Assembly (NCBI GenBank): GCA_046563655.1
Contig: CM102289.1
Coordinates: 248,001 to 312,000, forward strand
Direction: 5' to 3'
DNA from: Yuukianura sp. NJ FZ-2021
Lineage: Eukaryota
DNA: 64,000 nucleotides
Shown: piece by piece, positions 10,595-50,373 of the stretch
Position numbering within the stretch: position 1 is the stretch's first letter
Layout of the letters: every line of letters starts with the position of its first letter
Notes under the pieces: generated by a model
What the model was told of the DNA's origin: nothing
Database searches by the model: none
The model's input: the letters and a program-made list of their open reading frames with translations, nothing else
Made by a program: the position numbers and the translations under genes

Positions 10595-11763
10595 TTCAAC
10601 GACTGCCAAACTTATTTTTTGAAAAGCATGAAATTAGGAATGGAAGAAATTCAAAGTAATGTCAAAAATGAAATCTAAATTGCAAATTTTGGAAATTGGA
10701 AAACAGTTTAAGTTAATTAGAGAGTTTTCTGGACATGGGCAGTTGGTTTCATGGTACCAATTGTTTACAGCGTTTCTGCATTGCTGATTTTCCAAATTGC
10801 TGAGTTAAGCGGAATAGTTGGTTGGAGAAGCTGTGACTAATTGACCTTGTGGGGTAATTAGCGTTAAAGTGGTTAACTGTAGTTTGTATAATTAACTAAC
10901 TCCAATCTAATCCCAGCCACTTGCGGCTCTTCCGGGTCTTTTTGCGGTTTAAGAATCAAATCTCGGAGTGAACCGACCATGGTCATCCAACATTCAGGGC
11001 TTTTCGGAGTTCCGCGGTTTTCAACTTCGTCATCAGCTAAATCCCAAACTCTCAAAACCTAACAAAACTAAACACTAGTTTAACTTTTAATTTTTAGTAA
11101 ACAAAAATAAGTTAGTTTGTAATTTAAAACTTGAAAACTAAAAATAATTTTTTTGTTTTTTTCAGAAACAAGGAACAGTTACGTAAATGCCAACATGTGT
11201 GGAAGCCGGTATATTGGATTTGGATTTTTTCTGAAGAAGCGACTCGAGGGAAACGTGAGAACGGATATCTTCGAAGCATCAAACGAAGATACTGGAACTG
11301 CGAAGTTACTGGTACCGGACAAATACTGGCTGCTTGTGAAGTATTGGCCGGAAACAAATGGCTTCAAGTGTTCCCAGCACAGACGTGAGTTAGAGGTTAT
11401 GCAATCGCTGTAGAAGTGGCAACTGTGCTACAGCTTTCAGCAGCACAGTGTTTCCGTCCTTTTTAAATTGTGAATTTGATTATTCCTTTGGTGTGGGACC
11501 GCAGAAGAGACTTTGTCTCTTCCCGTGGTTTTGCACATTCTGTGGCTAATGTGATTAACTAATTCTCGGTCTAATTTTTGTTGCCAGGTGACCAATGGGA
11601 TGGCAGCCACGTCTGTCCAGGGCGATAACCGAAGCCATATTAAGCCTCTCCAGCCTCCACTCGTCCCCATTGTTCTCTTCTTCCTTACGAAGGAAAGTTC
11701 AATTTCACTTTTGACGGCTTACCCGTTTAGTCGACTGCTTTTGAATTTTGATCATCCGAGAGA

Positions 11764-14700
11764 ATGGGTGTGTTGAAGGATTACATGGCTGAGAAGGCGA
11801 GTGCTGCGAGCACTGAAACCATCACGATTGTGTCCGATGGCCAGCAGTTTGATCACTTTTCCACCGTGGAGGGTCTGGACTCTTATGAAATCGTTGTCGT
11901 CGATGGAGGCTACCAACAGATCGATGAAGAAACGACGGTCATCATCGTCGGTGGCGACGAAACGACGACCACCACGACCACTGAGCAAGTCATCATCATC
12001 CAAGACGAACTCCCATTCCCACTCTGCCCCGGAGAATTCTGGGTAAGGAACTTCAATCCCCTACCGATTACCAATTCAGAACAGTACGAACGTTAAACAA
12101 ACGTTCAAACGTTTTAAACGTTAAACAAACGTTTAAAATCATCTTCATTTCGTATCTAGTTAGTAAAATAGTTTTAACAAATGTTTGATGGTAGCTTATT
12201 CTGTGTTTAGGCTGAGGGTCTCCGGACTGTCTATGGAGAACGGTAAGATTCACAACGATTCTCTTGAAAACTTTAACGTTTTAGGAACGTTTTACTAACG
12301 TTTTTGGAACGTTGTACTTGCAACTTACAGTAATTGATTAATGACTTTGTTAATTAGTAACTTGGTTCTGGGCTACACGAACTCGTTGGAGATTCAAGTG
12401 AGCGACACGAAGACAGCTGAAGTTGGACCAATGAGCAGTGGCCTCGTTTTGCAAATGGGCAAGGGCGGATGCCAAACGATCGGAACTGAGCAGACGTTCT
12501 ACGTGGACATGACTGTCGTTGACTTTAAGATGTCCAACCCCAGTGGAGCCATCACCCTCGAAGTCGATTCCAACCGAGAAGGTAACGTTTCAGTAACTTA
12601 CTCTACTCATTTTAAATCAGTAAGTTAGTTGTAGTCTTAACTAGTTGATTAATTGATTTCTATAAACAGCTCAACGGTGCATGTTGGTGGCCAAGAACAC
12701 TCATCGTGTCTTGTCCAAGTTTGCCAAGTTTAGCCAACAAATCAACTGGCCCTCATTGGTCGCTCAGTACACCGTAAGTTTGTGAACCAAATCTGAATTC
12801 TGGAGAATAGTTTTTACAGTTTTTAGACTTCACACTTTTTTGTTGTTTTTTGTTTTTATAGTCTGACAAAGTTGCTTTCTACAAGGAATACTTGGAGGTA
12901 ACTGATCACAAACATTTTGTTTAGGATTTAAGTTAAGAGTTATACTAAAAGTGACTTATCATTTTCAGATGTTCTACCCAGCAACTCTGGACGTTTACTT
13001 CAACACGACAGTGACGATGAACTGGGACTTGGCCAAGGTCGGAGGCCGAACTGGAAAGCAAATCCTGCTCAACCGGAAGACAATCAACTTCGGATCTGAT
13101 GAAGTCCTCACTTGGCCACCAGCCCAGTTCGACTTCTCCCCAAGGAGTACATCGAACTGGTGGAAATGACTTCGGCAACATCAGCCAGAATTGTCACCAG
13201 AATCGAACGATTTGTCTCCATCTTCATCTTCCCCTTCATCACTGATCCTGCTGATGTGCTCATCATGGAGGAAAGACTCAAGATTGGACTCACATTCGAG
13301 TACATTGTTTCTGTCGTCACCAAGTACATTGTGGACCAACACCACTCGGACTTTGTTCTCGAGTTGCCATTCCCAACTGACCCGGCTGAATTCTGGAAGG
13401 TATTTCAAACATAACTTTGTTTATAATCTAACTAGCACTAAAAAGTATAGATTTTTGATTTGTTATTTTGATTTTGTAGGTTGCTATCCAAACTGTGTAT
13501 GGAGGAGAGCACCAGAGCGACATTTTCTTGTTGATGGGTGTGACGAATGCACTCAAATTCCACTTTGGCGATGACTCTGCCAACACTGGCTCTCTCCTTT
13601 CTGGGCTCACTGTCAAGGTCGACAAGGTCAGCTCCACAAACGCCGCTGGATCACCCGAGTTTAGCCTCAATCTCAAGGTCGTCGACTTCAAACTGACCAC
13701 CACACGACCAGGAATCAACCTCGAGTTGGACAACAGCCGTGGAGGTAAGGAAACTACAACTTTTTCATACTATTCTCATAAATATACTAAGTTTCCTGAA
13801 TATTCTGAAATCCTGAGGTTTTGAGATTTTGAATTTGCAATAAGCTGTTTCTGGTTACAGATGCCACTTGTGTGATCACTGCCCAACAAACTGCCCGAAT
13901 TATCGAGCGATTCGACCAATTCAAGCGCCGTGTCACCTGGAAATCACTTGTTGACGAATACCAGCAAAACCGAATTCGGTTCTTCCGAAAGTACTTGAAC
14001 GTAAGAATCTAGGATTTGAAAAAATTCTTTGAAGAATTTTCTAAAATTCTTTTAACAATTTTCTAAAATGCTTCAAAGTTTGAATCTTTTTGAAAGTATT
14101 GACCAAGTATTTTGATTTTTGCAGTTCTTCTACCCAGCTGACTTTGCTTTTACGTTCAACATCAAGCAGACAGTGAATGCTTCCTACTTGGACTTCCCTG
14201 GATTTGATGTAGACCGAGTTTTCATTACCCGAGACACTGTCGTTTCGAAGAACACGACCATCGCCAAGTTCCCACCGAGCAACCTCAACATCACTCCCAC
14301 CAAGCAAATCGAGTTTGTGTATCCAGATGCTCCAACGGTCGTCGTCATCACGGTGGATCGCTTTGATCTCAACTTTGTCACTCCGGAGAGCACTGACCCC
14401 AAGGACCTCACCATCATCTACAACACCATCACAGCTTCCACCATCTCATTCGAATTCATCAGGAAGGAGGTACGGAATTCACATTTTAAGAAAATTCAAA
14501 AACTTTTTTGGTTTCAAAAAAAAGTTTTTCTTTAAAAAAAAGTCCCTAGTCTTGTGATTAGAAGGAAGCAGTGTTGGTGGATATCCACTTTTTCGACATT
14601 TCATCCACGGCTGGATATCCAGTGGAAGAAATGGACGAAATGGATGAATCCAAAGGGGCGGAGCTTTGCCCTCTGAATTTCAATTAATTGAGTACAAACA

Positions 14701-17700
14701 ACTAAAAAACGTGAAACCACTGTTCAAAAACTATGTATATATTGTTTTCAAATACGTTTTAAACTAATATATTAACTATAATCGCGAAAGTAAAGCGTTC
14801 TGATATCATTTCGTAAACTTAAATTTGAATTAATTTGAATTTCGCGCAAAATTTGTGATTTCTTCCATCCACTTTTAGTTTCGTCCATTTGGGGCGCGTT
14901 TCTTCCAGTGGATATCCACTGGAAGTGGCAATTAAGCCACTGGACGTTTAAGCGTCCACCAACACTGGAAGGAAGGATTTAAGAGGTATGGAGGTAGTTC
15001 AGTGGTGAGAGCATTGCCCCGCCACGGGAAATATGGGGTCGAATCGTACTCCACGCATTTAATTTTTTTTCTCTCTCTCTCTTGTAGGTGACGAAGTATG
15101 TCGTGACGAAGCTTCCATTCCCATCGAACCCAGCCAAGTTCTGGGCAGAGGCTGTGAGTATTTAATCTTTTATTTAAATTTAATTAAAGTATAATTAGTT
15201 GATTAATTTTAAATAAAAAGTAAATATTTGTTTAATTATGCTTAGATTCGTACCATCTATGGAAATGAGTTTGTGCTTCTTGGGCAAACGGATTCGTTTA
15301 GTTACAAGAAAGTGGTAGGAAATATTGTGAAGCAAGTGAAGACCCAGTGCTGTTTCGTGGTTGAAGTTGGAGATGGAGTGACTGGAGTGACTGATGACCA
15401 TGAGAACGTTCTGTCCATTCCACTCATCCTCAAGTCATTCAAGATGGTTGACACTGACGGAGCAATTGAACTGGACCACGACTTTTCTCGCAAACGTAAG
15501 CAAAATTAGTGAGGTCAAAGGTCAACTTAAAGTTAACTCTGGTCTTTGATTTCCAGATGAAGAAGGAACCTTGGTTCTTCGCCACGCCAACCAGGTAGTC
15601 GAGTGGTTCCAAAACTTCTACAAGAACTTGGATCTCTTGACCCTCATCGAAGGTATGAAACAAAAATACTGTAAAAGTAGTAAAAAAAATTTTTAGCACC
15701 TCTTTTTTTAGTATTTTTTCCACTATGAAGCGCTAACAAAATTTAATCTCCCGGTATTTCCCACTGCCCCGGGAAATATTACAATTTACTGGGAAATACC
15801 GAACCCTTTTTAAAAAAATGCACAGAAAATACTAAAAAAGTCACTTTTTGTTAAATTACGTGACTAATAACAATGTGAAAATTAATTTATTATTTATTAT
15901 TATATTAATTATTATTAATTTGAAATTGTAGACTTCAACCGTGACCCGGCTGCCTTCTACAAGGAGTACATCCGCCACTTCTACCCAGCAGTTATCCAGC
16001 TCAGCCTCAACCTCAAGAAGGTCGTTGATGGTAGCAAAGTGGGCCATTTTGACGGAACTCTCACACTCCTCAACCGGGAAACTGTCGTCCTCATCTCTGA
16101 CGAAGTCCTCAACTTCCCACCATCTCAAGTGGAACTCACTGCACTCAGACCAATTGAGTTTGTGCAAAGGGAACAACCCAACAACATCATCATCGTCATC
16201 GAAAACTTTGGCACTCGCGTCATCAACTTCCATCCACGAAATGAACAGGAGATCATCATCTACCGAGAAATCATCGACAATGGACCAACCATCCAACTCA
16301 TCCAACAACATGGTAAAATCTCCACTTTTCCAAACTTTTTTTTTCAAAAGTTTGATTTCTTTGATTTTGAATTGTTTTGTGCTTTTTAGTGGAGATTCTG
16401 TTCATCGAGGTAGTTGGGAAAGAGGAGGTCAAACTTCCGTTTCCAGTTGATCCAAGTCAGTTCTGGATTGAGGCCATCAAGACCCTGCATGGAACAGACC
16501 ACGCCCTCCTTGGTCTCACTGAAATCTTCAAGTTCAAGGGCCCAGACGGAAAACCAATCAATTTTGGAAAACTGCCCAACGGTGAGACTTTCGAAATCAA
16601 AATCGCCGAAGACTGTTTGATTGGCAACGTTATTGAAACCTTGTTTTCATTTTTATTTTCAGGTTTGACCTACAAGATCACCGAGATTGTACCAACAGAC
16701 AAGCAGGTCAGCATCACCTTCGAAATCATCGACTTCCAGTTTGTCTCACCCGATGGAAAGTTCAAGGTCACCACTGACAAGAAGCCAGGTAAGACACCAA
16801 TACATCAAGTTTCCCATATTATAAATTCTCATAATTTTATAATTTCTATAATTTTTATAATTTTTCATAATTTTTATAATTTTCAGGCCAAACGATCACG
16901 ATCACTGTCCAAAACACGACGAAGATCGTCGAGATTTTTGAGCAGTTCAAGAAACCAAAGAACCCAACTGTCTTGATCCAAGAATACGAACGAGACCCCA
17001 AGAAATTCTTCGGCCAGTGCGTCTTCTAAAACAAAACTTTTTTAAAAAAGTTAATTTTTTGAAATCAGAATTATGAATTAAAAATGCTTTGTTTTTCAGA
17101 TACTTGGAACTGTTCTTCCCAGCCAACATCACCTTGAACTTCGACGTGACGACTTACTACGAGGAAGTGATCTACGTTTCCAAGGAACCCACGATCATCG
17201 TGCAGGAGATCAAGGAGTTCCCACCAAAAGACCTCCAGATCTGCCCCACCAAGCCAATCCAACTCATTGGGCAGAAGGACCCCACTGTCATTGTGTATAT
17301 TGACACCTTTGACACGAAGACGGTCGTCCCAAGCAGAACTGTCATCGACCAAATCTTCCACGTCGATGTCATCACCTTCGACGTCGTCAAGTATGTCACG
17401 CAAGTCATCGTCTCTCAGGACTTACCATTCGAAACATGCCCAGGTAAACTCAAATTACCGTATTTCCTCGCTTATAACACGCAATCGCGTATAAGACGCA
17501 GTCAGAAATTAAAAAATACCAAAATAGCACGTAAGAGTTAACTTGCGATTACCGTATTTCCTATAAGACGTATTTTTGTATAACTCGCAGCCAGAAATTC
17601 TCAAAAATTCCTAAATAGTCAGAATTTCTCAAAAATATTTAAATAGCGCGTAAAAGTAAGAGTTAACTTACGATTTAGTAATTTAGTAAAAAAAAAAAGT

Positions 17701-20700
17701 TTGAAAATTATTTCAAATTGTAAAATATTTTGGTGGATTTAGGCAAATTCTGGAAGGATGCTTTGGTGTCCATCTACGAAACGGACTCCCACGTCCTCTT
17801 TGGTGTGACGAACAACTTCGAAGTGACGGACTCCACTGGAAAGAAGCACAACCTCGGAACTGTGCTCTCTGCCTACACCATCAGGATCAAAGATGGAAGC
17901 TCCTGTGACATACCAGACTGCCAGTTTGTCCGAATTGAACTCGAAATTCTTGACTACAAAGCCACCACGCAACACCCAGGATTCGAAGTGTCTTTCGACA
18001 AGCTCCGACCAGGAGACATTTGCACTCTGTCTGTCAAGAACACAGTTGAATTCTTGAATGACTTCAAGAAAGTGTTCAACCCCAAGAACTGGCTCAACCT
18101 CATCGAACAGTTCAACAAGGGACCCAAGCAATTCTACGCTCAGTAAGAACAAAAATATTTCACAAAATACCCTAATTCCTCCCATATACTGTGCGTATTA
18201 TATAATGTTTCCTTTCCAAGACGGTTTAAAGCGAGGATTTAGGCTAATTAAAATTCCACTTTTGAACTTTGGATGGTAATTGTTGTTTACTTGCAGGTTC
18301 ATTGAACTTTACACCCCATCTACCTTGACCCTGAGCTACAACACGACGTACAAGTTCGACAAGACGATCATCACGATCCCAGGGACTGAAGACAAGACTT
18401 TGGTGAACCAGGATGTGATTGTGATCACTTTTGACAAGGTGAAGCAGTTCCCTCTCAAGGATGTGACCATCATCACCCGAGAACCAACTGTGTTGGTCGA
18501 GAGAGACAATCCAGACGTCGTCATCGTCACTGTCACCCGAGTAGAAACTCAGATCAAGTATGTCGTTGTCGATGAAAAGACTGACATCACTGAATTCAAC
18601 AACGTAAGTTCTTAAACTTAACACTCTGTTTTTTAGTTTAGAGTGTTAATGTTGTGTTTGTTTTGCCAGGCCATCATCCGTGGAATTACTATCCAATTCA
18701 TCTGGAAGGTCACCAATCAGTGGGTCACTGGAGGAACTGGGGAACTACCACCACCACCACCAGTCGACAGACCCAGATCACACAGCAGAAGTAAATCTCC
18801 ACCCCATAAAGACAAATCACCCGGCAGAGACAAATCTCCACCCCATAAAGACAAATCACCCGGCAGAGACAAATCTCCACCCCATAAAGACAAATCACCC
18901 GGCAGAGACAAATCTCCACCCCATAAAGACAAATCACCAGATGATAAGGAGAAATCACCAGAACCAGAAGAGCAAATTTGGGGAGTTCCATTTTCACTCA
19001 ATCCAGGTCAGATTCCTGAAAAATGTTAAAAATCCGAAATGTGAAAATAAAAGTGAAAGTTTAATTTGTGTTTTAGGTCGGTTCTGGTCTGATGCTGTTC
19101 GCCACATCTATGGCCACAAGGTTCTCATGCTGGGATCCACTGACAAATTCACCGTCAACGACCGCAACATCGGCAATCTCTACACTGGAGTCATCCTGGA
19201 AGTTGGAGAGGGATCTGACGAAGACTCAGATGACCTTCTCCTCAAGTTCAAGGTCACCGACATCAAGATGATCCACCAAGATGACGCCATCACCGTCGTT
19301 CAAGACACGCAAAAGAAACGTAAGGTTTGAAACTTTTATTTTCAACAAAGGTCATCAAATATCACTTTTGTTTACTTTTAGGCCCAACTTGCTCCATTGT
19401 GTCACACAACGTGGAGAAAGTAGAACTCAAGTTCCAATACTTCAACGACTCCACCAAGTGGAAGGCCCTTCGAGACGACTACCTCCATGACCCAGTCGCC
19501 TTCTACAAGAAGTAAGTGACCTTCTACTGTATTTCCTTACGTATAACACGCACTCGAGTATAAGACGCACCGAAATATTCAGTTTTCAGCGAAAAATTAT
19601 GTTTCGTTCCAATTTTTTTTACGAAATGTCTCAGATTAAAATTCTTGCTCTAAAAAAATCTATGGATTTTTTTTTGGAAATGACTAATTTGTTTTTGTTT
19701 TACAGGCACATCGATGTGTTCTACCCAGCCTCTGTGAACTTCAGCCTCAACTTGAAGTACACGATCGATGGATCCCTTGTCCCAGTTGGATTCACTGACA
19801 AGAAGACCCTCATCAACAGAGAGATCATCACGTTCACATCTGAACCAATTCTGAAGTTCCCACCAGGAGAAATTCTGTTCTACCCCAAGGGCCCAGTGAC
19901 TCTTGTGGAGAAGGAAAATCCCACCAACACTGTCATTGTCATCCAGTCATTTGTGAAGCACCTTGTGCACTACAATCCAAGTGACGTCCACCAGCAAAAC
20001 GCCACGCAAACCATCCTCATCAAGGGACTCACCTTCGAAATCGTCAAGACATATGTCATCCAAGTAAGTTCCACGTGATCTCTCACCTTAGAATTTTGAA
20101 AATACTAAGGTCAGACGTTATTTTCCGCTATTTCCCAGTATTTTCCGGCATTTCCCAGTATTTCCCACTGCACTGGGAAATAGGAAAATGTATTGGGAAA
20201 TGTAAAATAATACTGAATCCTGGTATTTTCATTTTTAGACTTTTTGAATTTTTTGCAGCATATTATCGTGGAGTGGCCAATTCCTGAACTTCCGTTTAGC
20301 CTGGTTCCAGCCAAGCTGTGGCAAGATGCCATCAGAACCCTGTACGGAGAGCACTTTGTCTACTTTGGCCTAATTGATTTGACGAAGATGAAGGGGCCCA
20401 AGGGGGAGGTGCCCATTGGACCAATGCACGGCGGCTTCACATTCAAGTTCATCGATGTGACGGAGGACTTGACGAAGGGCTTCAACATCTCCCTCCAGAT
20501 TGTGGAGTGCAAGTGGGTCAGCGAAGATGACGACACTGAGGTCGTTCTGGACACAACCAAACCAGGAAGCATCATCACCATCCGTGTGGACGACGAAACC
20601 AAGATCATCGAGACGATTCAGCGCTGGAAGACCACTCGCCAATGGGACAGTCTCATTGAAGAGGTACAACTCTACTATACAACTTGATAAGTATTCAATT

Positions 20701-23700
20701 TATAGACGTATAACGCGCGCGTTATCTGTTGTTTTTCGATCCCACATGAGATGCAAAAATGAAATTTATTGACAATCTTCCCCAGTTCCAAACTCCACAA
20801 ATTAAAATTCACCGTATTTTGAGAGATTGGCAATGATGTTTGAATGCGGCTTATATGCGAGTGCGCGTTATACGCAGATAAATAGGGTATTTTAAATATT
20901 GGCAGTATTTGGGCTGATTTTGAATTTTTTGTGCAGTACACACAAAACAAGGTGACCTTCTACCAGAAGTATATTCAGGTAAATACTATTTTTTGAATAA
21001 AAAATAAACCGTTGATGAAATCTTTTTGAAATACTTGAAATTATTTTTTATACTAGATACAAGTTTTTGATTTTGTTTTGCAGTACTTCTACCCAGCCAT
21101 CCTGGAGCACCACTTGGTGAACTTGCAGTTCACGTTCAAGGGCAACACTGCTAAACTTCTGGGATTCGATGGGCCAGTCGTTCTGGAAAACAAGACGACC
21201 ATCCACTACATCACGCACATCAAGGAGTTCCCACAAAACGACATCAAGTTTGTGCGCCAAAACACGATCGAGTTGGTGTTCCCAGGGAAGAGTGACATCA
21301 TTGTGACGATTGACACTTACCCCAGCAGCATCTGGGTCCTTCCGTTGAAGAACAACCAGTACGACATTGACTTTGTGCTCGAACTCTTCAACACTGGACT
21401 CACCTTTGACATCATCCACTACCGAGTCATCAACTACATCATCTCCAAGCGACTCCCGTTTTCCATCAACCCAGGAGTCTTCTTCAGTGAAGCCATCAAA
21501 ACAGTATGGGGACCAGGTTAGTCCTTTACCAATTACTTCAACATTTTAACCTTAAATTATAACTTTTTAACATTAGTTTTTAAGATTCTAACATTTTAAG
21601 CGCATTTTTGTTCATTATAAACTTTTTTTTGTGTAGGAACTCTGATTCTGGGAGGATCTCAGGAGTTCCATGTGACTCTGCCGGATGGAAAAATTTACAA
21701 TGTTGGCCCAATGCTCAATGGATTTACAGTAGAGTATGGAGAAGGTCGCTATGAGAAGGGAGAGGACATCACTGTTCTTCTTCGTCTCACGGACTACAAA
21801 ATGACAAACAAGCGAGGAGGGTTCCAAATCCAACTGGACAACACCCGAGAAGGTAATCTTCTACTTTCTAAAACAAATCTTAAAAACATTTTTGAATTTT
21901 GAAACTAATTTTGTATGTGAATTTATAGGAAACAGCATTGTGTTGGTTGTTGAGAACTCTCAAAAGGTGATTGAGCGATTCGTGCAAATGACGCATGCAA
22001 CTGGATGGGACGCTTTGGCTTTAGAGTACAAGAGTGACCCCAAAGTATTCTACCGCAAGTACATACAACTCTTCTACCCAGCCACCATCAAGGCCACCGT
22101 CAATCTCAAGTACACCATTGACGCCAAATTGACGGCACTCCCAGGATTCACTGGCACCAAGACTTACGTCAACAGAGAGATCATCCACATTGTCACCAAG
22201 TACGTCAACATCACTTGAACTTACTTCAATTAGTTAAAAACTTATTTAAATTAGTTAGATTACAATAAAATAAGTTATTTTATTGTTCTTTTGCAGGGAT
22301 ATCACTGACTTCCCACCGACCAACTTGGATCTTAGCCCAATCAACCCAGTGGAACTGATCTTCCCAGGCTCAGACACTGTCGTCTTGACAATCAAGGAAT
22401 TCCACTCAATCTGGACTCGACCAGTCATCAAGGGAGATGATGAGTACATCATCCTCAGGAAACTCATCAAAACTGGAATCACCTACCAGTACCTCATCAC
22501 CACGTAAGAAAATACTCCCAAGCATCTCCAAGTACAAAGTACAAGTAACTGCAAATATCCAGTACTTTTATTTATACTTGTTCTTTTGAATTGCAGCGTT
22601 GAGAAGTACATCTCGTTCCAATGCTTGGACCACCCCCTGGCTCCGGACACTCTCCCATTCCCAGTATGCCCAGGAGACTTCTTTGTAAGCCATTCAAGAT
22701 TTAATTAACAATTGACTAATTAATTGTGAAATTAAGAGTTTACTTTTATTTATTCTTTACTTATTATTTATTATTTTTATTTATTTATTATTTACTTATT
22801 CTTTCCCTTTATTTATTTATTTATTTATTTATTATTTACTTATTCTTTCTCTTAGGCCGAAGCCATCCGTACGATCCATGGTGATTCTACTCTTTTGATC
22901 GGAAGTTCCAGCCAACTTGAGTTTATCGATGAGAAAGGAAACAAGTTGGACGATGGACCACTCTTGACGTCCCTTCTTGTCAAGATTGTCAAGGGCTCCT
23001 GCGAGACTTTCCAGGGTCGCAACTCAATTAGAGTCTCCTTCGACATTCTGGACTTCAAGCTCACCACGGAACACAGCAAGACAGAAATCGAATTCGACCG
23101 AATCCGCAAGGGTAAACTATTTCCCAAAAATTTTTCAAAAAACTTTGGCTGGAAGACAATTTTCATGTCAATTTTCAATTTTAGGAACCAAAGTAACGTT
23201 GGAGGTCAAGAACGTTGACGAAATCATCCGTGAATTCGCCAAGATCGCTGACATCACCAACTGGGACAAACTCACCGTTGAAGTAAGTTTTTTCACAGAA
23301 ACTCATAAACAAAAAAAAACTGAAAAAAAATGCTGTGAAAAGTTTTTGGAAAAAACGTAATTGGATTTTGGTTTTTAGTACCACAAGAGCCCGGTTGAGT
23401 TTTACCAACAATACATCAACATGTTCTTCCCAGCTACGATCAAGTTGAGCTTTAACCTCAAGAGTGTCACCAACAATGTCGTTGTCGTCAACCGTGACAT
23501 CATTCACATCGACTCTGACGAAATCCTGACCTTCCCACCAAGTCAGTTCGAACTTCACTTGAAAGAACCCATTCACTTTGTGGAACACGACCACCGAACA
23601 GTCGTCGTCTTCCGAATCAACACTCTGGAGACTCACATGGTCCACCTTGTTCCAAAGGGAGACGATGACATCAACGAGGTCAAGCAGGTCATTCAAGTTG

Positions 23701-26700
23701 GCAACTTCACTTATGAGTTTGTCATTCGAATTGTCATCAAGTATCTCGTGCGTCCACCGCCAATCATCCCACCACTTCCGTTTTCTCTGGATCCACTTGT
23801 GTTCTGGCCAGAAGGAATCAGACAAACTGTTGGCGAAGGAGACTTCTTGCTCTCACTTTCTGATGACGACTTTGTCGTTAGCTTTACCGACGGCACGGTG
23901 ACCAACTTTGGACCACTTTTGTCTGGAATGACTTTCAAACTGGTGGAAGCCACTCAAGTGGACACTGAATACCAACTGCGATATGACATTGTTGACATGA
24001 AGCTTGTTTCTCTGGATGGATCTTTGGAGGTGGAGCAAGACAGAGATGTGCCTGGTAAGTTCCCTTTGACTTGCTGGCAGAGACAACCGTGCGCAACTTC
24101 TCGTTTCTGCGTTAAAACACTGACCTCATACTTTCCAAAATTCCGTCTAACTCCTTCTCCTGTTTTTTATTCAGTGGGCCAAATCACGGTTGTCACGCGC
24201 AACGGACTCCAAATTGTTGAGATAATCGAGAAGCTCAAGAACGCTGCCAACTGGGAAACTGTCAAGGCTGAGGTAACTTTCACAACTTTTTATAAAATCA
24301 GAAATTTATATAAAATTTTCAAAAATTTTGAAAATTTTGAAAATGCTGAAATGCTTTATGTTGGTTTAGTACGAACTGTCACCGAAGAAGTTCTACGAGA
24401 AACACCTCGTCCACTACTACCCAGCTGACTTCAAGATCAACGTTCACTTGAAGTTTGTCCACAGTGGCACCAAAACTTTCGTTACCAAGGACATTCTGAC
24501 CTACACTGGAGAGATCAGCAGCTTCCGCCATGACGGAATCAAAGTCACACTTCAGAATCCGATGATTCTCGTCGAAAACCGACAATCTGACAATGTCCTT
24601 GCCAAGATCATCATCGTCAAGAAGACCTGGATCACTCCAAACATCACTGACGAAAGAGAAATCACGCAAGTGAAGGAGATCATCCAGAACAACACGCTCA
24701 CTTACGTCATTGTCAGAGAGAAGGTCTACAAGTACATCATCGGAAGCCGAGTCCCATTCCCACTCTGCCCAGGTACGATACTTGCCAGTATTTCCAAAGA
24801 TACTTGCCATTATTTCTGAATTATGGTATCTAAAATATGAAAATGTGTACAGGTCAATTCTTTGCCGAGGCTGTGAAGACGATTTCTGGAGATGGACACT
24901 GTGTCCTTGGTATCACCCATCACTACCAAGTTGTTGTGGAAGGAAAGACGATTGATCTTGAAATGGCTCTGAGTGCAATCACGTTGAAGATCCATGAAGG
25001 AGCTTCCTGGGACTACACGCATGACAAGTCTATCCGAATTCGTGTAGACATCCGTGACTTCAAGTTGGCTCGTCGTGACGGTGGATTTGAGCTCGAGTAC
25101 GACACTACTCGTGAACGTAAGTTAAAAAAATTACTCTAAAACTACAAAATACCGCAGACCTTTCTGTAACTTTTTTGACTTTTTCCAAACATCTTGACTT
25201 TCAACTTTTTGAAACTTTGACTTAACTTTTTGACTTTTTTTTTTGAAATTAGGTGGAAATGCTTACATCACTGTGAACAACACGACTGAGGTGTTCAAGA
25301 CGTTCAACGACTTCTTCCACCCGTCGAAATGGGATGCTTATGCTGCCATGTACAACCAGAACCCCAAGGCCTTCTACGAAAAGTACATCCACGTCTTCTT
25401 CCCAGCTTCCTTCGACTACAGCATGAACTTGAAGTTGGCAGTTGACGGAGAGTTCCTCAACCTCCCAGGAGTGGATGACCGAGAGACATTCATCACCAAG
25501 GAAATCGTCAACTTCAACTTCCCTGGTCTCCAGAAGTTCCCGCTTGGAGAAGACCTCATGCGATTCAACGTCTCCAATCCAATTCAGTTCGTCAGACGAT
25601 CTGATGTCACCAAGGTCATCATCAGTGTTCCAAAGGTCGAAAGTGTCTACATCTCGCCAGAGTACCCAGACAAGGCTGAGAAGGCTATCTTCGATCAAGC
25701 CATCCTCGATGGACTCAGCTTCCGATTCGTCTCTGACATGGTCAGTCTCTCACATTTTAACAAACAACTTATTTTTACACAAAAACTGAAAAGTTATTTC
25801 TAAAAAGTGAAAAGTTATGTCTAAAATGTGGAAACGTTTAAATTTTTCTGCTTTTTTGCAGGTTTCTCGGTACATTGTGACCAGAATGCCATTCCCAACT
25901 GACATTGGTCTCTTCTGGGAACATGCTATTCGCACAATCTACGGAGAGAAGCACTTGTTCCTCGGAGTTTCAGACAAACCCAACATCGCTCACCCAGAAG
26001 CCGCTGGATCCAAAGACAAGATCGAATTTGCCGTTGGACCAACCATGTCTGGCCTGTTGACGAGCGTTGGAAGTGGAAGAGTGACTGGATCTGGAGCCAA
26101 CGTTAAAATCACTTGTGACATCCACCTCAAGGACTTCAAGCAAACTGACTACGAAGGAGCTGTCGAAATGGCCTATGATCCAACCAGACCAGGTAAGCAC
26201 ACCAGAATTTAGTGAAATTTCAGTTTCTAATTTTCTTTTAGTTCTTTTTCCAACTTTTTTCATTTTTTGTGACAGGCGCTACCGGAAAACTGATTTGCTT
26301 GAGCCCAGCCAAGGTCGTTGAGCAATTCGCCTGGATGGCTGATCCACCAAACTGGCAACAGTTGCTGGACGAGTACGCAGAGTCACCGAAGAAGTTCTAC
26401 AAGAAGTACGTCAAGGTCTTCTACCCTGCTCGAGTCGAAATCCCAATGAACGTCACGTTGGCAGTTGGATCACACAAGGCTCAGGTGGAGAACTACAAGG
26501 GAGGCAAGCAACTCATCTCCAAGGAAACATTCACTTTCGTTCGAGAGTCAGTTCCATACTGGCCAGTTGCCAGCACACTCTTCATCCCAAGTGTCTCCGT
26601 GGAAATGGTTGACACGGCAACGCAGAAGTTGAGTGCCTACTTCCTCCGTAAACGAATCACGATGGTCCACCCATCGAAGGAGGAGAAGTCAGAACACGAG

Positions 26701-26829
26701 ATTTGCTTGAGATTCTACGAATCTGGAATCTCGTTCCGACAGGTTACGGATTTGTGCAAGACCTACTGCGAAGTTCCCGAGTTCAAGAAAGTCACGCGAG
26801 TCTTTGTTGACTGGGTCGAAGTCGTCTAA
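11764..26829 (+). CDS. Giant (~3000 aa) uncharacterised protein with 12 tandem ~235-aa repeats, ~39 coding exons
   Basis: Phase-compatible GT-AG exons. Each repeat starts (L/V/M)PFxxxPxxF(W/F)xxAIxTxYG and contains DFK, DxxRxG, WxxLxxEY, FYxKYIxxF(Y/F)PA and FPP motifs. Strong codon bias (TTC/ATC/AAG/GGA/CCA). No signal peptide; in-frame stop upstream of ATG 11764; TAA at 26827-26829. Confidence 0.85.
14569..14967. mobile_element. Non-autonomous hAT-type MITE in an intron
   Basis: TIRs cagtgttggtgga ... tccaccaacactg; perfect 8-bp TSD gaaggaag at 14561-14568 and 14968-14975; internal tggatatcca palindromes. Confidence 0.9.
14986..15068 (+). pseudogene. tRNA-Gly(GCC)-like pseudogene / tRNA-derived SINE
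   Basis: gtatggaggtagttcagtggtgagagc...ccgccacggg...gggtcgaatcg...tccacgca plus T-run: A box, GCC loop, degenerate B box, imperfect acceptor stem. Confidence 0.55.
17456..17585 (+). mobile_element. MITE-end remnants (TACCGTATTT...TATAAGACGC family); related copies at ~19526-19571 and ~20690-20890
   Basis: Recurring ccgtatttcct...tataacacgca...gtataagacgca motif in several introns of the giant gene; the 20690-20890 copy has inverted ends. Confidence 0.55.
18793..18940 (+). repeat. Coding 39-bp repeat (KSPPHKDKSPGRD) x ~3.7 in the linker between repeats 5 and 6
   Basis: Identical copies of aaatctccaccccataaagacaaatcacccggcagagac. Confidence 0.95.
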
Positions 26830-27219
26830 AGCCTAAAACACAACGGAATCTACTGGACACGGACATGATCACGAAATACTCTCAAAACAAACCCATGATA
26901 TCAAAATTCAAAGTTTAAATAAATTGGCAGTCGCAACTTACTTGTCTCCTTGTCTTTCCCCATTTAATTATTTAACAGTTGAACCCATGGCCACAGAATG
27001 CATTAGAAAAGCTCAGAAAATGCTTTACTTTAGAAAATCGGACATCAACTTTTTCAAAATTTGGACAAGAGGGTACCTTTTAGAATTTCTAAAAATACTC
27101 CATATTTTTGTGAGTTCAGCGAAGAGTTGGCCTCTCTAGGATGCCCACATTCGAAGGCGAAAAAGGGTGAAGAGTGAAAAGTTGTTGGACTTGCATATTT
27201 TTGTACAATTTCAATTTTA

Positions 27220-27454
27220 GAATTTTGGGGGTTTGGAGTTGGGATGGTCCCTCCATGCATTTTTGCCATTGCCACCCACTCCCTCCCCCAACATCCAACT
27301 CCAAAAGAGTAAAACACTCCTTCATTCTACTCCTCTCGTCTTCATATAAAAGGGAAGCTCACCAATTTCTTCTCATTCACTTTGTGGTGTCGTTCGAGAG
27401 ATGAAGGAAGAGGAGACACAGTTTCCTTATGTGAACAAACAAGATCTGTTTCTT
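27220..27454 (+). repeat. Dispersed TATA/Inr-bearing repeat (copy 2)
   Basis: ...tcttcatataaaagggaagctcaccaatttcttctcattcac...; inverted homolog of 7561-7795. Confidence 0.85.
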
Positions 27455-27561
27455 CTTCACTTATTTTTAATTGCTATCTCCAATTAACTCTTATTTTAGT
27501 TAAATAATCAAAAGATCCAGGGGATCGATGCATCAAAACATTGTCATTTTGAATTGACGAT

Positions 27562-27725
27562 GTTGGGGGTTTGGAGTTGGGATGGTCCCCACATGCATTT
27601 CTTCCATTGCCACCTCACACTGTTCACCACCCCTAACTCCAAAAGAGTAAAATCCAAAGGAATCCTACTCCTTCCCTCGCCATATAAAAGCAAAGCTCAC
27701 CAAATTCCTTTCCTTCACTCACGTC
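27562..27725 (+). repeat. Dispersed TATA/Inr-bearing repeat (diverged copy 3)
   Basis: gtttggagttgggatggtccc...ctccaaaagagtaaaa...catataaaagcaaagctcaccaaatt...ttcactc. Confidence 0.8.
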
Positions 27726-28971
27726 TCTGTCTTGGAAGGGGAGAGGAAGGGTTTTTGTGTTTGAGAGATGGCGCTGCAGAGAGAGGGTGACTGGTGTTGT
27801 GTGGGGCTTTTAGTGCAACCGACGTCTCCTTCATTTGCATTTTCTCCCTCCTTCCTGCCGCATTCGTCTCCTCTTCGTCGCCACTTTTGTTCCTCTGTCT
27901 TCAGCTGTATCCTCCCGCAAGTAAAGTGTCCGTTACTTTAATTCTAGTTTAATTAACGTTCATCGATTAACCATTGTTGTTAGTTAGTCATAATCTCATG
28001 ACCATACAAAGTGTCAACTACAGGTAACAACTAACAACTAAAGGAACCAAAAGTCATAAGGTCTAACGGTCAATGTTTGTTGCTTTTAGTTGGGAATGGG
28101 GTTTTCTAAAAATGGACACCCACATCATCACCTTCCGCATCGGCATCACCTCTTCCAAATCTTTTGATCCTGCATCTCTATTCTCCATTTCAGTCGTCGT
28201 TCCTCTTGTGCAAACTTTGGCGACGAATCATTCCCACCTCTCCATTTCTACTACTTCCATCGTTGCTCAACTACTTGGAAGGTAGGACGCGAAGCACTTT
28301 TCACATTCCACTTTCCACATTTTGATAACAAGGTAAGGAACGCTCTTTTTCATTACTTCTGGTTGGCATTTAGTCTTTTGTTTGGGCTTCAATTGGTCAT
28401 AGTGAGAACCGTTGAGGTCAAACGTAGTTCAAAGGTCAGGTCACTTGGACAAACGTAATTCGGAAGGGAGGGACTTTAACTTTACCGGGGTTCAGTCCTT
28501 ACATGAGGTGCTAAAAATGGAATTGAGATGCTGGGAAGACAAATGGCCCAACACTTGCCATCTTTGTATCTGTCAGTGTTTATATTCCATCTTCATTTCT
28601 TTAGACTCAATCAATTCAGTTCCAGTGCAGGGTGACACTGGATTCATTTACCTAACTTACACTTCCAAGATAGCTAAGAGATTCTTCTCAAAAAACTCAC
28701 GCATTCCACAGCATCTCGATTCCAAAGTTATTTTATGATTCTGATCCCACGTTATTTTTGTTTTGGTTTTAGATAAGATGCTATAATTCTATTTTTGCCT
28801 AAGTATTTTAAAGTTCAACTGAAGTTATGTACTTTTGTTTTTGTTTAGAAGGAGTAGTGTGGCTATGGTGGACTCTGCCTCACTATTTTTAGCTCAGCCG
28901 TAGGGACTAGTCGGGAGTAGTATTTGGGAGGGGAAATAGCTTAAAAATGACCAAATATCAGAAACGGTTTG

Positions 28972-34058: not shown

Positions 34059-35929
34059 CCTAGAGGCGCATTTGTTTTGGGAAGGGGGGGGAGAGATAAT
34101 TTTGAATCGAAAACAAAATCGCATGAGTGGTTCGCCGCCCCGCGATCCAATTCACAGGGTGCGCCAAATGTCAAATGACAATAAACTTTGAAAACGCGAA
34201 TTTTTCAACAAGTGATGAATTAAATTTACCATTTATTGGTTAGTATTAAATTTGTAACGATAAAATCACATCAGGTGCTCGAAATGGCCTCCATTTTCTT
34301 GGAGACAATGGTGGAGTCGCATATAAAACGATTGTCTTACGTTCTCCATCATTGTCGCTGTTATCTGTAACCTAAAAAATTACGAATTGCTCTCTTCAAG
34401 TCCATTGGAGTCTCAGGCCGTTTTGGAACAAAAATTTGCTGTCGCATGTAACCCCAGCCGAAATAATCGAGCGGCGCGAAGTCCGGACTCTAGCGGGCCA
34501 GAGGATCGGTCCGCCGCGCCCGATCCATCTCCCCGGGAACTCTTTGTTGAGCTCATCCCGCACCAAGCGCGACCAATGAGCTGGAGCCCCGTCTTGCTGG
34601 AACCAAATATCGGCGGGGTTAATTCCCTGTCGTTGAGCGGATCTGTAAATTTCCGGAAATGCTTCATTTTGAAGCATCGCAAGGTAGGAATTGGCGTTTA
34701 TGTTTCCAGGGAAAAAGAATGGCCCAATACGCTCATCGCCGAAAAATCCAGTCCAAATGTTTAGCTAAAAATTAAAAAAAAAAGTTTTGTCTCATTTTTG
34801 TTTTAATTTTTTTTCCAATTTTTCTTGCAACTATTTTTAAATTTTTTGTTTCAATTTTGTGTTTTCATTTTTTTTTTTCAATTTTTTGTTTCAATTTTTT
34901 GTTTTCAATTTTTCTTTTCAATTTTTTTTTCAATTTTTTTTTTAATTTTTTTCAATTTTTTTTCAATTTTAATTACCTTTGGAGCGCCCTGTGCTTTTAA
35001 CCCTTCACACCAGAGTGGGTTTTCTTTAGCCCAATAGCGGAAATTTTGCCGATTGAATTCGTCGTTAAGAAAAATTGTGGCCTCATCACTGAAGACAATC
35101 TTACGCAAAAAATTTCGATCTTGATTAATTCGGTCAATCATAATTTCAGCAAAGTCAATCCGTTTCTGATAATCGCCTTCGTGCAGTTGCTGATGAACTT
35201 GAAGCTTGTAAGATTTGTAGCTATTTTCTTTTAAAATCCGTCCCACAGATCTTTTCGAAATTCCAGAATCAAGAGACAATTGCCTGGTAGAAACATGCGG
35301 GTTAAGGTCAATTGCTGCCAATATGGATGCCGACAGGTTTTCATTTGTCGCTGGTTTCTTTTTTTCCTTGGCGATTTTGTTTGCGACGGATCCAGTTTTT
35401 TCAAATTTTTCCACGATTCGCTTCACATCTTCAGCTTTGGACATTGGATGATTAAAGGAGATTGGATCTCCATTGTAACGATGCATAATTTCCGTGAAAT
35501 TTTCGTTGGAGTACATGTAGCGGAGCTTAACAATAGCAACACGCTGCTCGATGGAGTAGGGTACACGCTTAGTCGCCTGTCAAATTAACGAAACACTTAT
35601 TGGTGTGGGTCGGGCTTAACGTAAATTTGTAATTCAACCTTACCATTTGAGAAGAATTGATGGAATGCAGGAATTTACTTTTCAGTTTTGAGTGTACGAT
35701 CCACGATCCAGGTACAATTTTTAAAAAACCCGCTTCGTTCAGTCTTTTAACTTAGTAAAACTTGTCAAATTAAGAATTAACTTAAGCTTGTGGAGGTCGG
35801 GAGCGGAATTGCATGATGGGATCGGCCGTTGGGCTCGTTGTCGGTTGCGCGCCTAACCATTCCCGCGCAAAAAGAGGGGGAGAGGGAAACTTCCTCTCCC
35901 CTCATTCCCAAAACAAATGCGCCTCTAGG
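34059..35929 (-). mobile_element. Tc1/mariner-superfamily DD41D (rosa) transposon, full length
   Basis: TIRs cctagaggcgcatttgttttggga ... tcccaaaacaaatgcgcctctagg; TA TSD at 34057-58 and 35930-31. Confidence 0.92.
34266..35646 (-). pseudogene. DD41D transposase with two introns and two apparent 1-bp frameshifts
   Basis: M/ATKRVPYSIEQR...HTH...IVFSDEA...RYWAKENP / LNIWTGFFG...WFQQDGAPAH...WIGRGGPILWPAR[fs]SPDFAPLDYFGWG...[fs]...GGHFEHLM*. There are 41 residues between the second and third Asp. Confidence 0.85.
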
Positions 35930-45399: not shown

Positions 45400-46451
45400 G
45401 TTCACAAATTGCGAATCGTAATTAAAACGTTAAATCAAACTTTTTAAGGAATTTCTCCTCCTGTTCCGGTGGAAGGTGGAGTTAGACGGTCGAATTCTGC
45501 AATGATACTCTGCTCCTTCCAACCATTATTCGGCGACCTTTGACCTGAAACATTAGAGAAAGTTATCGTATGATCAATGACTTAAAAATGGATTGAATTA
45601 ATCGATTGATGTTTACTTACTTTAGCAAGTTGAGTTAAAAGGAAGCCTAGTCAGTCACTACCGAACAAGAGCAAACCAACATACGAAACAGTTATGCAAT
45701 AACTGATTACGAGACAGATTTTTTGTTTTTTAATTTTTCAGTACTGCTTTCGCACATTTGTATTTGGGTTGAAGTAAGGCGGAATTACTCCCATTGGAAC
45801 CAAGCATTGTAATCATCCGCGTCATATTTGTAGCTACGCTCTAAGTGCAGCAAATGATTACACTATGAATACTTCAATTAGGTTTTCACAATTATTGTAA
45901 CTGCCAGATATGGTAGTTACAGAGTGGTTACAAAAATTGCAGTGATAACCATAATAGTGCAATTGGGGCAATGCTGTTTTACTTCAATCTACATTTGTCC
46001 CATGTGTGGGACACTAATCCTCAGAAACGGCAGATTTCTCAGTAACTTGCAAAATAAGTAGCGGAAGCTACTTTATAACCTTCTCTATGCCTGACAGTGT
46101 GTCTTTCGGTTTTTAATGTTAGCGGAATAATTTCAGAAGTTACCAATTTCAATCACGGTAGAACCATTCAACATTTCAATAAAAATTTCAACGGTGAAAC
46201 TAAAAAACATCAGTGTGTCTGTTCCGTTTAAAATTAAAACTTGCTGAAATTTTACATTTGAATCCGTAAAGGTCTGGACTTATTTTTCGAAAGAAATGCG
46301 GTTGTTTGTAATAAAAGTCAATTACAGGAAACTTCGGTTAAATTTTGACTCTTTTCTAGTTGATGCCAATTAAACCAATTACTTACTCGATATTTAAGGT
46401 GAGCACAACGCTCTGTCAATTTATAATTCACTTGTGGAACTTATAAGCAAA

Positions 46452-48146
46452 ATGGGAAAATTTGAGTTTGTCGTCATTTTGATTTTTGCATTAGGGCAAA
46501 ATGTTTTTGCCGAAGACTATTACAGCATTGAACTGGACGGAAAGTTTAGTCAAGACGGTGGACGGTACATCTCTGAAACTTTGATGGCGGCAAAAGCTGA
46601 ATTTAGGGAGCAAAAGAGAGAGGAGAGAGATGTGGAACCACGCCTTCTTCCTCCGATTACATTCATTGGCACGGTAACCCTCAGGACACCCAGATATGTC
46701 GCCGTAGTTGGGGTCAACTCGTCCTTTGAGTTTACGCAATTCTGGGTTGACCCTGACGAAAACGTCGAAAATGTCGACAGCAATCGGGTCAAAAGGGATT
46801 CGGAGCAAAAGGAATCGGCTCGACTCGGGTTTTACGGTCAATTTCAATTAGGCAAACGCAGGTCCGAAGTTCTCCGAGTCAAAATATACGTGGACGTTAC
46901 TCGCGAATCCGACAAATACATTCGGTAAATTTACTCAATTCTTTTCCGTAACCTTAGACTTTTATGTGATTTTGCGGTTCCAGTTCATAAGGGCTAAACC
47001 AAAAATGGGTACTGCAATAAGGGCTAATAAGAAGTAGCCCTTACTGAAGTGGCTCCTTATTTTTAGTCGTGTTTTAGTAGGTATTTTTTAGCCATTTTTG
47101 GAAAGCCCTTTTCGGTTTAGCCTTTATGAACTGCTGAGTAAATTTAACGTAAAATTTACTCGGCAAATTTACTAAAAATTTGTCTCCCGTAAAATTTTCA
47201 GACCGTAACTTTGCTTGGAAAGATTTTTTAACATTGCATAAATGCACTTAACAACATAATTTATCACTTGTAAATTTCATTTTAATTTAATTGATTATTA
47301 ATAATAACTATAATTAATTTTAATAATTATTATAATTAATTATTGATTTACTAATTTTTTGCACTATGTACATTTACGTACGCCGTAAATTTACCCGACA
47401 AAGTTTTGTTCAGAAGTGGCAATGATGTTTGCCACTTACTGTTGATTCAATTGCTGTTGATCTTTTTGAATTTCAGGCCCATTGACTCGTCAGAAATGGG
47501 CGACGTGAAAGACAAGCTGGAATTCGGATTCAAAGGGAAGCTGTCCGGCCCTTCTCGCAATGGAAAAGTAGAATCTGCATTGTTTGGCTTCAACGTAGGG
47601 GTCCAGTCCGAGGAAAAGGAGTCAACCAATCGGCTCAAACGACAATCCGATCAACAGATTTCGGATCAACAGGAGCAAGGACAATCCGATCAACTAAAAC
47701 CAGTTGTCAAAATCGATGGAGACTTTACCGTTGAGGAAGTGATGGGAAATGGAGGCAGGATGGTCACAGTTGACAAGGTCACGGGAGAAATTTCTTTTGA
47801 CACGACAATTCCCACTGAAAACACTTCGCCAAAAGACCTGTTTTACGCCAATGACGGAACACCTTCGTTCCAATATTACTTCGAAACTGCCGGGAATGTC
47901 ACGGGCAGTGTGGACGGAAAACCGGTTTTTGTCGAACCGCTTACCGTTTCGTTCCGGAACACGGTTGAGGAGGAACTTCGGCGGAAAAGAAACGCTGAAA
48001 AACCGGAGACGTTGGAACTGGAGTACGACGGCTACTTTTCCGGAGTATCCCGAACGAATCCGTCGGACAGAGATCGGTTCGGGATTTTGGCAAAACTCAA
48101 ACTCTGGGAAATCAGCACCGTTTATCACCCCAGAGACTACGAGTAG
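46452..48146 (+). CDS. Secreted multi-furin-site beta-hairpin protein, paralog 1 (2 exons)
   Basis: Signal MGKFEFVVILIFALGQNVFA; phase-2 intron 46925-47476; sites REER, RVKR, RLKR, RRKR. Confidence 0.85.
46981..47133. mobile_element. Small MITE-like inverted-repeat element in the intron of paralog 1
   Basis: cagttcataagggctaaaccaaaa ... ttttcggtttagcctttatgaactg; no clear TSD. Confidence 0.65.
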
Positions 48147-48593
48147 TCACATCCACGTGTGAAATTTGCTTTCAATTTAAAATCTTTGAAAGTTAAAATT
48201 TTTTGAAAATAAACTTTTTCGAATTCAAAATTTCTGATGTAATAAATAATTTTCAAGTGACATAAATTAAAGGGCTCAACCGTGTTCCAAATGTAGTATA
48301 ATATACTAATAGAATTTATTTCAGTAACGTGAGACTAAAAAAGTCGACGTTTTAAGAATTTTAAGGTTTAGTCGAAGTAGCTTTAATTAATATTTTACAT
48401 TTTAGGTGAAAACGCAATGTCTGGGTTTGTAAAGAAGTGTGGTTGCTTGTAATTCAAGTCAATTACAAAAAACTGCAGTTAATTCTTCAAATGTTTTCTA
48501 GTCAACGCCAATTGAACCAATTAACAATTCGATATTTAACGCGACCAAAATGCAGTTTCAATGTCTAAGTCACTTTTGGAGTTTGTAAGCAAA

Positions 48594-50011: not shown

Positions 50012-50373
50012 ATGTCACCAAAATTTCAATTTTTTGAAAAAGAAATTTTTATTAAATTCAAAATTTCTGATGCACCAAATTATTCTCAAGTGACATAAAT
50101 TAAAAGCCATCACCATGTTCAAAATTGTTTTTTTAATTAACATTGACATTGACAAATCCAGTTTCTGCGGTTTTTTTAAATGATGACTGATTTTTAAGTG
50201 GAAGTGCAAAGGTTCAAAACTTTTTGAAACGATTGATTGTCCAAATTGAGCTAATTGCAGGAAACTGTAATTAAAATGTTTACAGAATTTTAAATTTTTG
50301 GAATTAAGCAGATGAAGTGTTTTGCTATTTAGTGGGTGGCTTCCCTACTGCTATCAGTCATTCCTTGACAACC

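Follow-up and report, generated by a model that had tools for sequence, protein, structure and literature searches.

A springtail gene for a chain of twelve related units, their modelled DynF-type fold and their actinomycete relatives

Why does a springtail carry a giant gene built from twelve copies of one unit, where does the unit come from and what could such a chain do? The question is raised by a locus of Yuukianura sp. NJ FZ-2021 (assembly GCA_046563655.1, contig CM102289.1, positions 248,001 to 312,000), a stretch of 64,000 nucleotides (nt) that we call the window and to which the springtail coordinates below refer. An earlier note, made from the sequence without database searches, had described here an abundant cytoplasmic protein of twelve repeats based on a possibly undescribed domain. 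We find that a single plus-strand gene at 11764-26829 encodes a protein of 3,375 amino acids (aa), that its units belong to a sequence family with bacterial members, and that models of relatives place the unit among barrels of the type of DynF, a protein of an enediyne cluster. We favour, with moderate confidence, the view that the giant protein strings 12 DynF-type barrels together, resides in the cytoplasm, is probably abundant and binds long hydrophobic ligands.

One gene, twelve units

Is the locus one gene or several? The spliced model has 38 exons and 37 introns, all with GT..AG ends, and a coding sequence of 10,128 nt that starts with ATG at 11764, stops at 26827-26829 and forms a single open frame in which the base of a frame break at 13137 is read as X. 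To build the model, exons were joined so as to keep the frame, splice sites were scored after training on the RNA introns, and unresolved junctions were read directly. The introns measure 61-618 nt (median 97) and have a GC content of 28.5%, against 48.7% for the exons; the window has a GC of about 0.40, and its coding sequence is split into many short open reading frames (ORFs). Three micro-exons lie at 12211-12242, 12862-12897 and 20937-20978. The parts of the gene are as follows.

11764-12042, 12211-12242, 12358-12581, 12670-12773, 12862-12897, 12969-13399, 13480-13744, 13861-14000, 14125-14469, 15088-15153 (+): exons 1-10
15246-15495, 15557-15652, 15932-16312, 16390-16788, 16887-17016, 17100-17443, 17743-18142, 18297-18603, 18670-19006, 19077-19319 (+): exons 11-20
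19382-19511, 19706-20063, 20259-20663, 20937-20978, 21084-21516, 21637-21852, 21929-22199, 22297-22503, 22597-22684, 22856-23111 (+): exons 21-30
23185-23282, 23379-24054, 24175-24272, 24370-24772, 24853-25116, 25253-25740, 25862-26192, 26276-26829 (+): exons 31-38
13134-13138 (+): frame break in exon 6, a C run one base short of the RNA contig, which has an extra C after 13137; two overlapping frames
26918-26923 (+): AATAAA polyadenylation signal in the 3' untranslated region, read in the sequence

RNA evidence came from the contigs of one public metatranscriptome run, in which one fifth of the sampled words were present and which was compared over 11000-28000. Twelve contigs, 90-99% identical, cover 28 of 30 bins from 11567 to 27442; the longest aligned contig has 12,517 nt, its full span over the gene not being established. 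The alignments contain 35 joints. Among the 15 listed, 14 have GT..AG ends and are exact introns of 73-273 nt after a shift within the stated ambiguity, and 13 introns of the model coincide exactly with joints of this set, while loose contig ends at 19384 and 22297 fit two further model acceptors. The 340 bases between the aligned pieces of RNA record 3 equal the 253+42+45 nt of exons 23-25, thereby supporting micro-exon 20937-20978 and the acceptor at 21084; the apparent joints 20410>20556 (GC..CA) and 20978>21129 were discounted, being gaps in the alignment of this divergent contig. Downstream, record 5 runs from 26273 to 26935 and its contig ends after the AATAAA signal. Given that RNA contigs splice over unit borders and that one frame passes through all 38 exons, the locus is one gene, as the earlier note had proposed.

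Could it nevertheless be a pseudogene, or several genes wrongly joined? The one-base break after 13137 would fit such a view, as would the 21 of 37 introns that are prediction only. Yet the extra base of the RNA contig restores the frame, no other stop occurs in 10.1 kb, spliced contigs bridge unit borders (record 3 spans the sixth unit into the eighth) and 31 of the 40 listed differences between RNA and window are synonymous; we give this explanation hardly any credence. The break in the C run is either a homopolymer assembly error or a real allele.

The repeats were defined by an iterative profile search inside the window, seeded with one 254-aa exon and run over 1,957 six-frame ORFs. It returned 28 matches, all on the plus strand between 11794 and 26778, in which N-halves and C-halves alternate strictly, 12 of each, with a partial C-half in the leader; nowhere else in the 64,000 nt did an ORF match the repeat profile. 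Short linker exons were located with a second profile seed, and a first MAFFT alignment that mixed the halves was discarded, N-halves having been aligned onto C-halves. Borders were then taken from a 12-row alignment of units, and the E-values below from a profile built on 7 proteins from outside the window, which all 12 units match (E 1e-17 to 1e-46) from position 39 to about 265 of its 288 positions.

11764-12009 (+): acidic leader of 82 aa, rich in Thr and with faint similarity to the last part of a C-half (profile positions 56-143, matched by 11794-12042)
12010-13363 (+): unit R1, aa 83-357, E 1e-46
13364-15111 (+): unit R2, aa 358-627, E 2e-40
15112-16433 (+): unit R3, aa 628-898, E 2e-41
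16434-17421 (+): unit R4, aa 899-1167, E 1e-30, with a 27-aa insertion in its N-half
17422-18984 (+): unit R5, aa 1168-1515, E 3e-30, holding a low-complexity insert
18742-18975 (+): the low-complexity R5-R6 linker, a PPPPP run followed by about 4 copies of KDKSPGRDKSPPH
18985-20288 (+): unit R6, aa 1516-1776, E 4e-38
20289-21452 (+): unit R7, aa 1777-2038, E 1e-19
21453-22651 (+): unit R8, aa 2039-2309, E 1e-44
22652-23774 (+): unit R9, aa 2310-2570, E 1e-38
23775-24750 (+): unit R10, aa 2571-2823, E 1e-17
24751-25885 (+): unit R11, aa 2824-3089, E 6e-34
25886-26826 (+): unit R12, aa 3090-3375, E 6e-40, the most divergent, outside the R1-R11 clade

All twelve starts lie within 1 nt of those given in the earlier note (R1 at 12010), and every shared motif named there is a conserved column of the 12-row alignment. 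Its unit size of about 235 aa was too small, the spliced units having 253-286 aa and R5, owing to the insert, 348 aa. Other claims drawn from the letters hold for the spliced product as well: the protein is rich in V (9.3%), T (8.6%), I (8.5%) and F (6.6%), and its leader is indeed acidic and Thr-rich (17 D/E, 2 K/R and 13 Thr in 82 aa). RNA contigs have loose, unmatched ends at 18761 and 18966, so that the copy number of KDKSPGRDKSPPH may differ in the RNA source.

The units are 18-34% identical to one another (mean 27%), and R1-R11 form one clade in the tree (support 100/98). A phase-1 intron at alignment column 137 is common to 10 of the 12 units, other intron positions being common to subsets; therefore amplification took place in the DNA of a eukaryote, when the unit already carried this intron.

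Where in the cell would such a protein act, and in what amount? The N-terminus of the 3,375-aa model is not hydrophobic and shows no signal peptide, and no segment of it looks membrane-spanning, because Pro and Asp occur even in the 19-aa windows of highest hydrophobicity (maximum 1.76). This hydrophobicity scan, in agreement with what had been claimed before, suggests a cytoplasmic location. Codon bias is also stronger than in the neighbours, as previously remarked: the effective number of codons (ENC) is 44.6 (44.2 in 200-codon blocks) with a third-position C content (C3) of 0.41, compared with ENC 54-61 and C3 0.24-0.34 in neighbouring exons with Pfam hits. Judged by this bias, the protein is probably highly expressed and abundant.

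Tandem, probably lipid-binding units with stand-alone single-unit relatives (see below) recall the nematode polyprotein allergens, lipid-binding precursors that carry a signal peptide and regular dibasic cleavage sites between units, and the springtail protein might likewise be a precursor cleaved into 12 single barrels. The junctions between units are short, in keeping with the beads-on-a-string architecture first proposed, but only 1 of the 12 has a dibasic site and no cleavage motif is conserved among them. In addition to the missing signal peptide, the identity between units is low, unlike that of typical polyproteins. We consider such processing very improbable.

Relatives and fold of the unit

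Has this unit been seen before? Pfam gave nothing over cut-off for 8 exon pieces, 12 N-half pieces and 6 database relatives, NCBIfam gave no match for 5 database relatives, and a sequence search of the PDB with half-unit and whole-unit profiles gave nothing significant. The 254-aa exon found no homologue among proteins of 446-2000 aa. A profile of the linker and C-half, scored against 1.84 billion representative proteins, produced only 23 hits at E <= 0.001, all of 86-452 aa. Fifteen of them are fragments, each closest to one particular repeat (35-53% identity) and much less to the others; together they cover 11 of the 12 repeats, R6 missing, and one (P0001) runs from R2 into R3 in the same order. 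The chain of several repeats is therefore an old arrangement that diverged relatives have kept. No giant homologue was among the 23 hits, though annotated springtail proteomes are part of the collection, so that in those proteomes the giant gene is absent or unannotated.

The remaining hits are of several kinds. P0006 and P0022 are complete stand-alone units, and the contig of P0006 (L004 1-1074) is a complete poly-A mRNA from a metatranscriptome, encoding one 284-aa unit that, in line with a cytoplasmic location of the giant protein, lacks a signal peptide; single-unit eukaryotic forms thus exist. Three bacterial hits, P0015, P0018 and P0020, are annotated as "hypothetical proteins" in the Streptosporangiaceae genera Nonomuraea and Herbidospora; in each, a signal or Tat-like peptide precedes a single unit. 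One fragment, P0013, fits no repeat clearly better than the rest (29% to R6). Two doubtful hits were set aside, P0021 (E 5.8e-5, 44 aa aligned) and P0023 (a 452-aa internal repeat, E 2.9e-4), and an ESM Atlas search with P0006 was not used, its best score being 0.90, to unnamed bacterial clusters, with low recognition.

Among bacteria the unit is rare. A pattern search combined with tblastn located it at 3 loci among 185,579 species genomes. It matched 7 of 301 sampled Streptosporangiaceae genomes, 5 of them strongly; two genomes (G027 and G272) give weak, partial matches. In a phylum-wide sample, none of 400 genomes matched besides the centre genome. The open-access literature searched contained no description of the springtail giant protein and nothing relevant on gene transfer between Herbidospora or Nonomuraea and arthropods. 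The sequence family of the unit is undescribed and has no database name.

What fold does it adopt? Every window unit is split over exons, and models were therefore made on relatives. The model of P0006, from a 45-row alignment in which 24 rows are exon pieces of the giant gene, is one compact domain with a predicted local distance difference test (pLDDT) score of 91.0 and a predicted template modelling (pTM) score of 0.86. Its elements follow in the order helix, five strands, three helices, six strands, two helices. The bacterial unit P0018 was modelled with pLDDT 93-98 over residues 90-322 and the same order minus the last two helices. The modelled unit is an eight-stranded antiparallel barrel, and it superposes far better on DynF (PDB 6UBL) than on other barrels. 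Kinship with the eight-stranded barrels of the outer membrane (PagL, NspA, OmpA, OmpW) was also considered and rejected, an export signal and membrane insertion not being found. In fold, then, the models make the unit a DynF-type barrel rather than a new fold.

The sequence gives no such match. DynF was returned by profile A4 in the PDB search at E 0.34. DUF6073 (PF19550) is the nearest sequence family of DynF, since one of its members aligns end to end with DynF at E 2.3e-4; hmmscan with PF19550 hit only P0015 (E 0.23, 11.5 bits against a cut-off of 25), and hhalign of A4 and A5 with 8 DUF6073 members gave a probability of 0.1-0.3%. The unit is not a sequence-detectable member of the DynF/DUF6073 family. 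DUF6073, which was not named in the open-access literature searched, is present in 9 of 151 genomes of the actinomycete family that holds the units.

The earlier interpretation is thus partly supported. Its mostly beta domain with a helical insert is what the model of P0006 displays, and an undescribed domain stands at the level of the sequence family, with no Pfam, NCBIfam or PDB match, but not at the level of the fold.

Bacterial neighbourhoods and the likely role of the chain

The neighbourhood of the bacterial unit was examined in six genomes with a strong match (G001, G002, G003, G010, G047, G086). In three of them (G002, G010, G086) a polyketide synthase (PKS) with KS/AT/KR/DH domains is 1.2-2.6 kb away from the unit, and a DUF1702 gene about 10-12 kb away. 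Two of the three, G002 and G086, also have an FG-GAP protein, and G002 has a hot-dog thioesterase; the latter genome carries two tandem unit copies at the cassette and a third copy elsewhere. According to PMC7692728, the PKS domain order KS/AT/KR/DH together with DUF1702 and a thioesterase marks enediyne PKS clusters. The association of unit and cassette is real, not universal. The loci of unit gene and cassette in these three genomes are:

L003 5785-6393 and 7746-8768
L020 16007-18723
L021
L022

In Nonomuraea, a delta-60/DUF5122 beta-propeller gene is flanked by two unit copies. Directly around the unit copy of Herbidospora galbida (G001) there is no conserved operon; in this genome a DUF6073 gene (C1:115648-116289) is 26 kb from the DUF1702 gene (C1:142458-143357), and the unit is on another contig.

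What do the barrels bind, if anything? DynF crystallised with palmitate inside the barrel, the ligand being known from the crystal structure and from gas chromatography-mass spectrometry; its authors judged that the palmitate had probably co-purified from E. coli, and co-expression with the PKS gave no polyene. By analogy, ligand binding by the units is most likely. Each would begin with a helix (LPFPxxPxxFW..AIxTxYG), followed by strands, an insert of three helices (W..L..EY...P..FY.KYI..FYPA), more strands (NRE.I, FPP, P.ELV) and, at the C-terminus, two helices. Inside it would lie a single long hydrophobic molecule, for instance a fatty acid, a polyene or a polyketide-like lipid, and the chain as a whole would bind, buffer or carry such ligands with high capacity. 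The springtail and actinomycete genes are probably linked by transfer between domains of life, and the animal gene grew by internal duplication once the unit had acquired its intron.

A scaffold offers a different answer: the 12 barrels might be inert beads in a long cytoplasmic structure or elastic filament, with no ligand at all. Beads on a string with short junctions, a PEVK-like low-complexity insert between R5 and R6, a codon bias typical of abundant structural proteins and conserved residues that are mostly structural would all suit a mechanical role. What such a scaffold fits badly is the kinship of its parts, given that the closest solved structure is a ligand-filled barrel, that stand-alone single units occur in eukaryotes and that in bacteria the relatives are secreted proteins of one unit each, with a polyketide cassette next to 3 of 6. 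We hold this structural role to be unlikely, though of some weight.

Might the barrels instead be catalytic? Sungeidine biosynthesis cannot proceed without the DynF orthologue Sgd15, for which a role in processing has been considered (PMC8725005); the bacterial units adjoin enediyne-type cassettes, so an array of enzymes acting on a polyene or lipid substrate, as one possibility raised for DynF and Sgd15 in early enediyne processing, deserves attention. Thirty columns do not vary among the bacterial and eukaryotic units, and most of these hold P, G, F, W, L or N. The only polar residues among them are one Asp and four Asn, with no conserved His, Cys, Ser, Lys or Glu, and this is no catalytic signature. 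Twelve divergent catalytic copies in one chain would moreover be unusual, and no PKS gene is among the window neighbours of the springtail gene. An enzyme array has, in our judgement, only a slim chance of being right.

A more specific history can also be told, in which the springtail, a soil animal, received an accessory barrel of actinomycete enediyne or polyene clusters by gene transfer between domains of life. Twelve-fold amplification would have turned it into an abundant "sponge" in the cytosol, there to sequester toxic lipophilic polyketides of microbes or to carry the animal's own. If true, this would be an animal device of chemical defence or detoxification with a bacterial origin; we regard it as improbable.

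Several observations weigh against the chain of ligand-binding barrels that we prefer. The fold is known from models of relatives and not of window units, and the link to DynF is structural only, the sequence comparisons above lending no support (E 0.34; hhalign below 1%). For DynF itself, moreover, ligand and role are matters of proposal. Linkage to the cassette is lacking in 3 of 6 genomes: in G001 and G047 DUF1702 is on other contigs, and G003 has no DUF1702. The tree gives no direction of transfer between bacteria and animal. As to the gene itself, the window has the one-nucleotide frame break at 13137, and RNA cover at the 5' end starts within 11567-12133 (compared from 11000), so that an upstream signal-peptide exon may exist.

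Window neighbours and known systems

The other genes of the window are ordinary animal genes: a RING finger, a USP deubiquitinase, a DM4/DM12 (DM4_12) gene, a subtilase, a GH47 mannosidase and a class-3 lipase. The GH47 exon settles the host as a springtail: its identity is 75% to the springtails Orchesella dallaii and O. cincta and 72% to a third, Allacma fusca, against 59-66% to insects. Further features were noted:

34908-35579 (-): ORF with a Tc3-type transposase helix-turn-helix and DUF4817, the remnant of a Tc1/mariner-like element
46398-55113 (+): five paralogous two-exon genes in tandem, starting with a signal-like M[AG]KF.FAVFLLFA and YELDGKF, with dibasic NRVKRDS and RKRN sites and no Pfam match
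55619-57940 (+): two large ORFs, the first with a hydrophobic N-terminus and a later hydrophobic stretch, the second made of tandem repeats of about 14 aa, VPEEVKPPVEEK, PEVK-like and very A-rich (AT skew 0.35)
59665-60897 (-): intron-less 411-aa class-3 lipase ORF; among named relatives it is nearest to those of fungi (Sanghuangporus, Fomitiporia; about 30% identity), not of arthropods; judged by these relatives, possibly a second transferred gene in the window

Springtails are known to hold microbial genes of secondary metabolism, beta-lactam genes as reported in PMC5200902 and microbial-type terpene synthases as reported in PMC13638087. The giant protein would add a further case of microbial-type genes in these animals, with an unusual amplification of the domain. 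A unit family that had neither a Pfam nor an NCBIfam model gains a modelled fold and a testable function, and DynF, a protein of enediyne antibiotic biosynthesis, would be tied to a larger group, among whose members are proteins that actinomycetes secrete and encode next to enediyne-type cassettes. An animal would have chained 12 such barrels in what is probably one of its most highly expressed giant proteins. The identity of the ligand could reveal new ways of handling lipids or polyketides in soil arthropods and help to settle what DynF-type barrels bind.

How does the chain compare with known systems? The closest solved structure is DynF itself (6UBL), from the dynemicin enediyne cluster of Micromonospora chersina, with its orthologue Sgd15. 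The unit differs from it in length, about 265 aa with the three-helix insert as opposed to 211 aa, and eukaryotic units add two C-terminal helices; bacterial units carry signal or Tat-like peptides, unlike DynF; and DynF is a dimer of single units, whereas the springtail protein chains 12 in one polypeptide. DUF6073 is related to DynF by sequence, and units of the window family do not match it. The YceI/TT1927b polyisoprenoid-binding proteins and the avidins are likewise soluble eight-stranded lipid binders, but they are single domains without sequence relation to the unit, and their fold match is far weaker than that of DynF. Chains of many copies of one small ligand-binding domain do occur in arthropods, namely the lepidopteran polycalins and the nine-domain globins of Artemia. 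Their folds differ from that of the springtail unit, polycalins having the lipocalin fold and being secreted or membrane-anchored, and the Artemia proteins having the globin fold; to our knowledge, neither has bacterial single-unit relatives beside polyketide clusters. Set beside these systems, the 12-fold animal architecture is what is new here; the sequence family has no name, and its distribution spans two domains of life.

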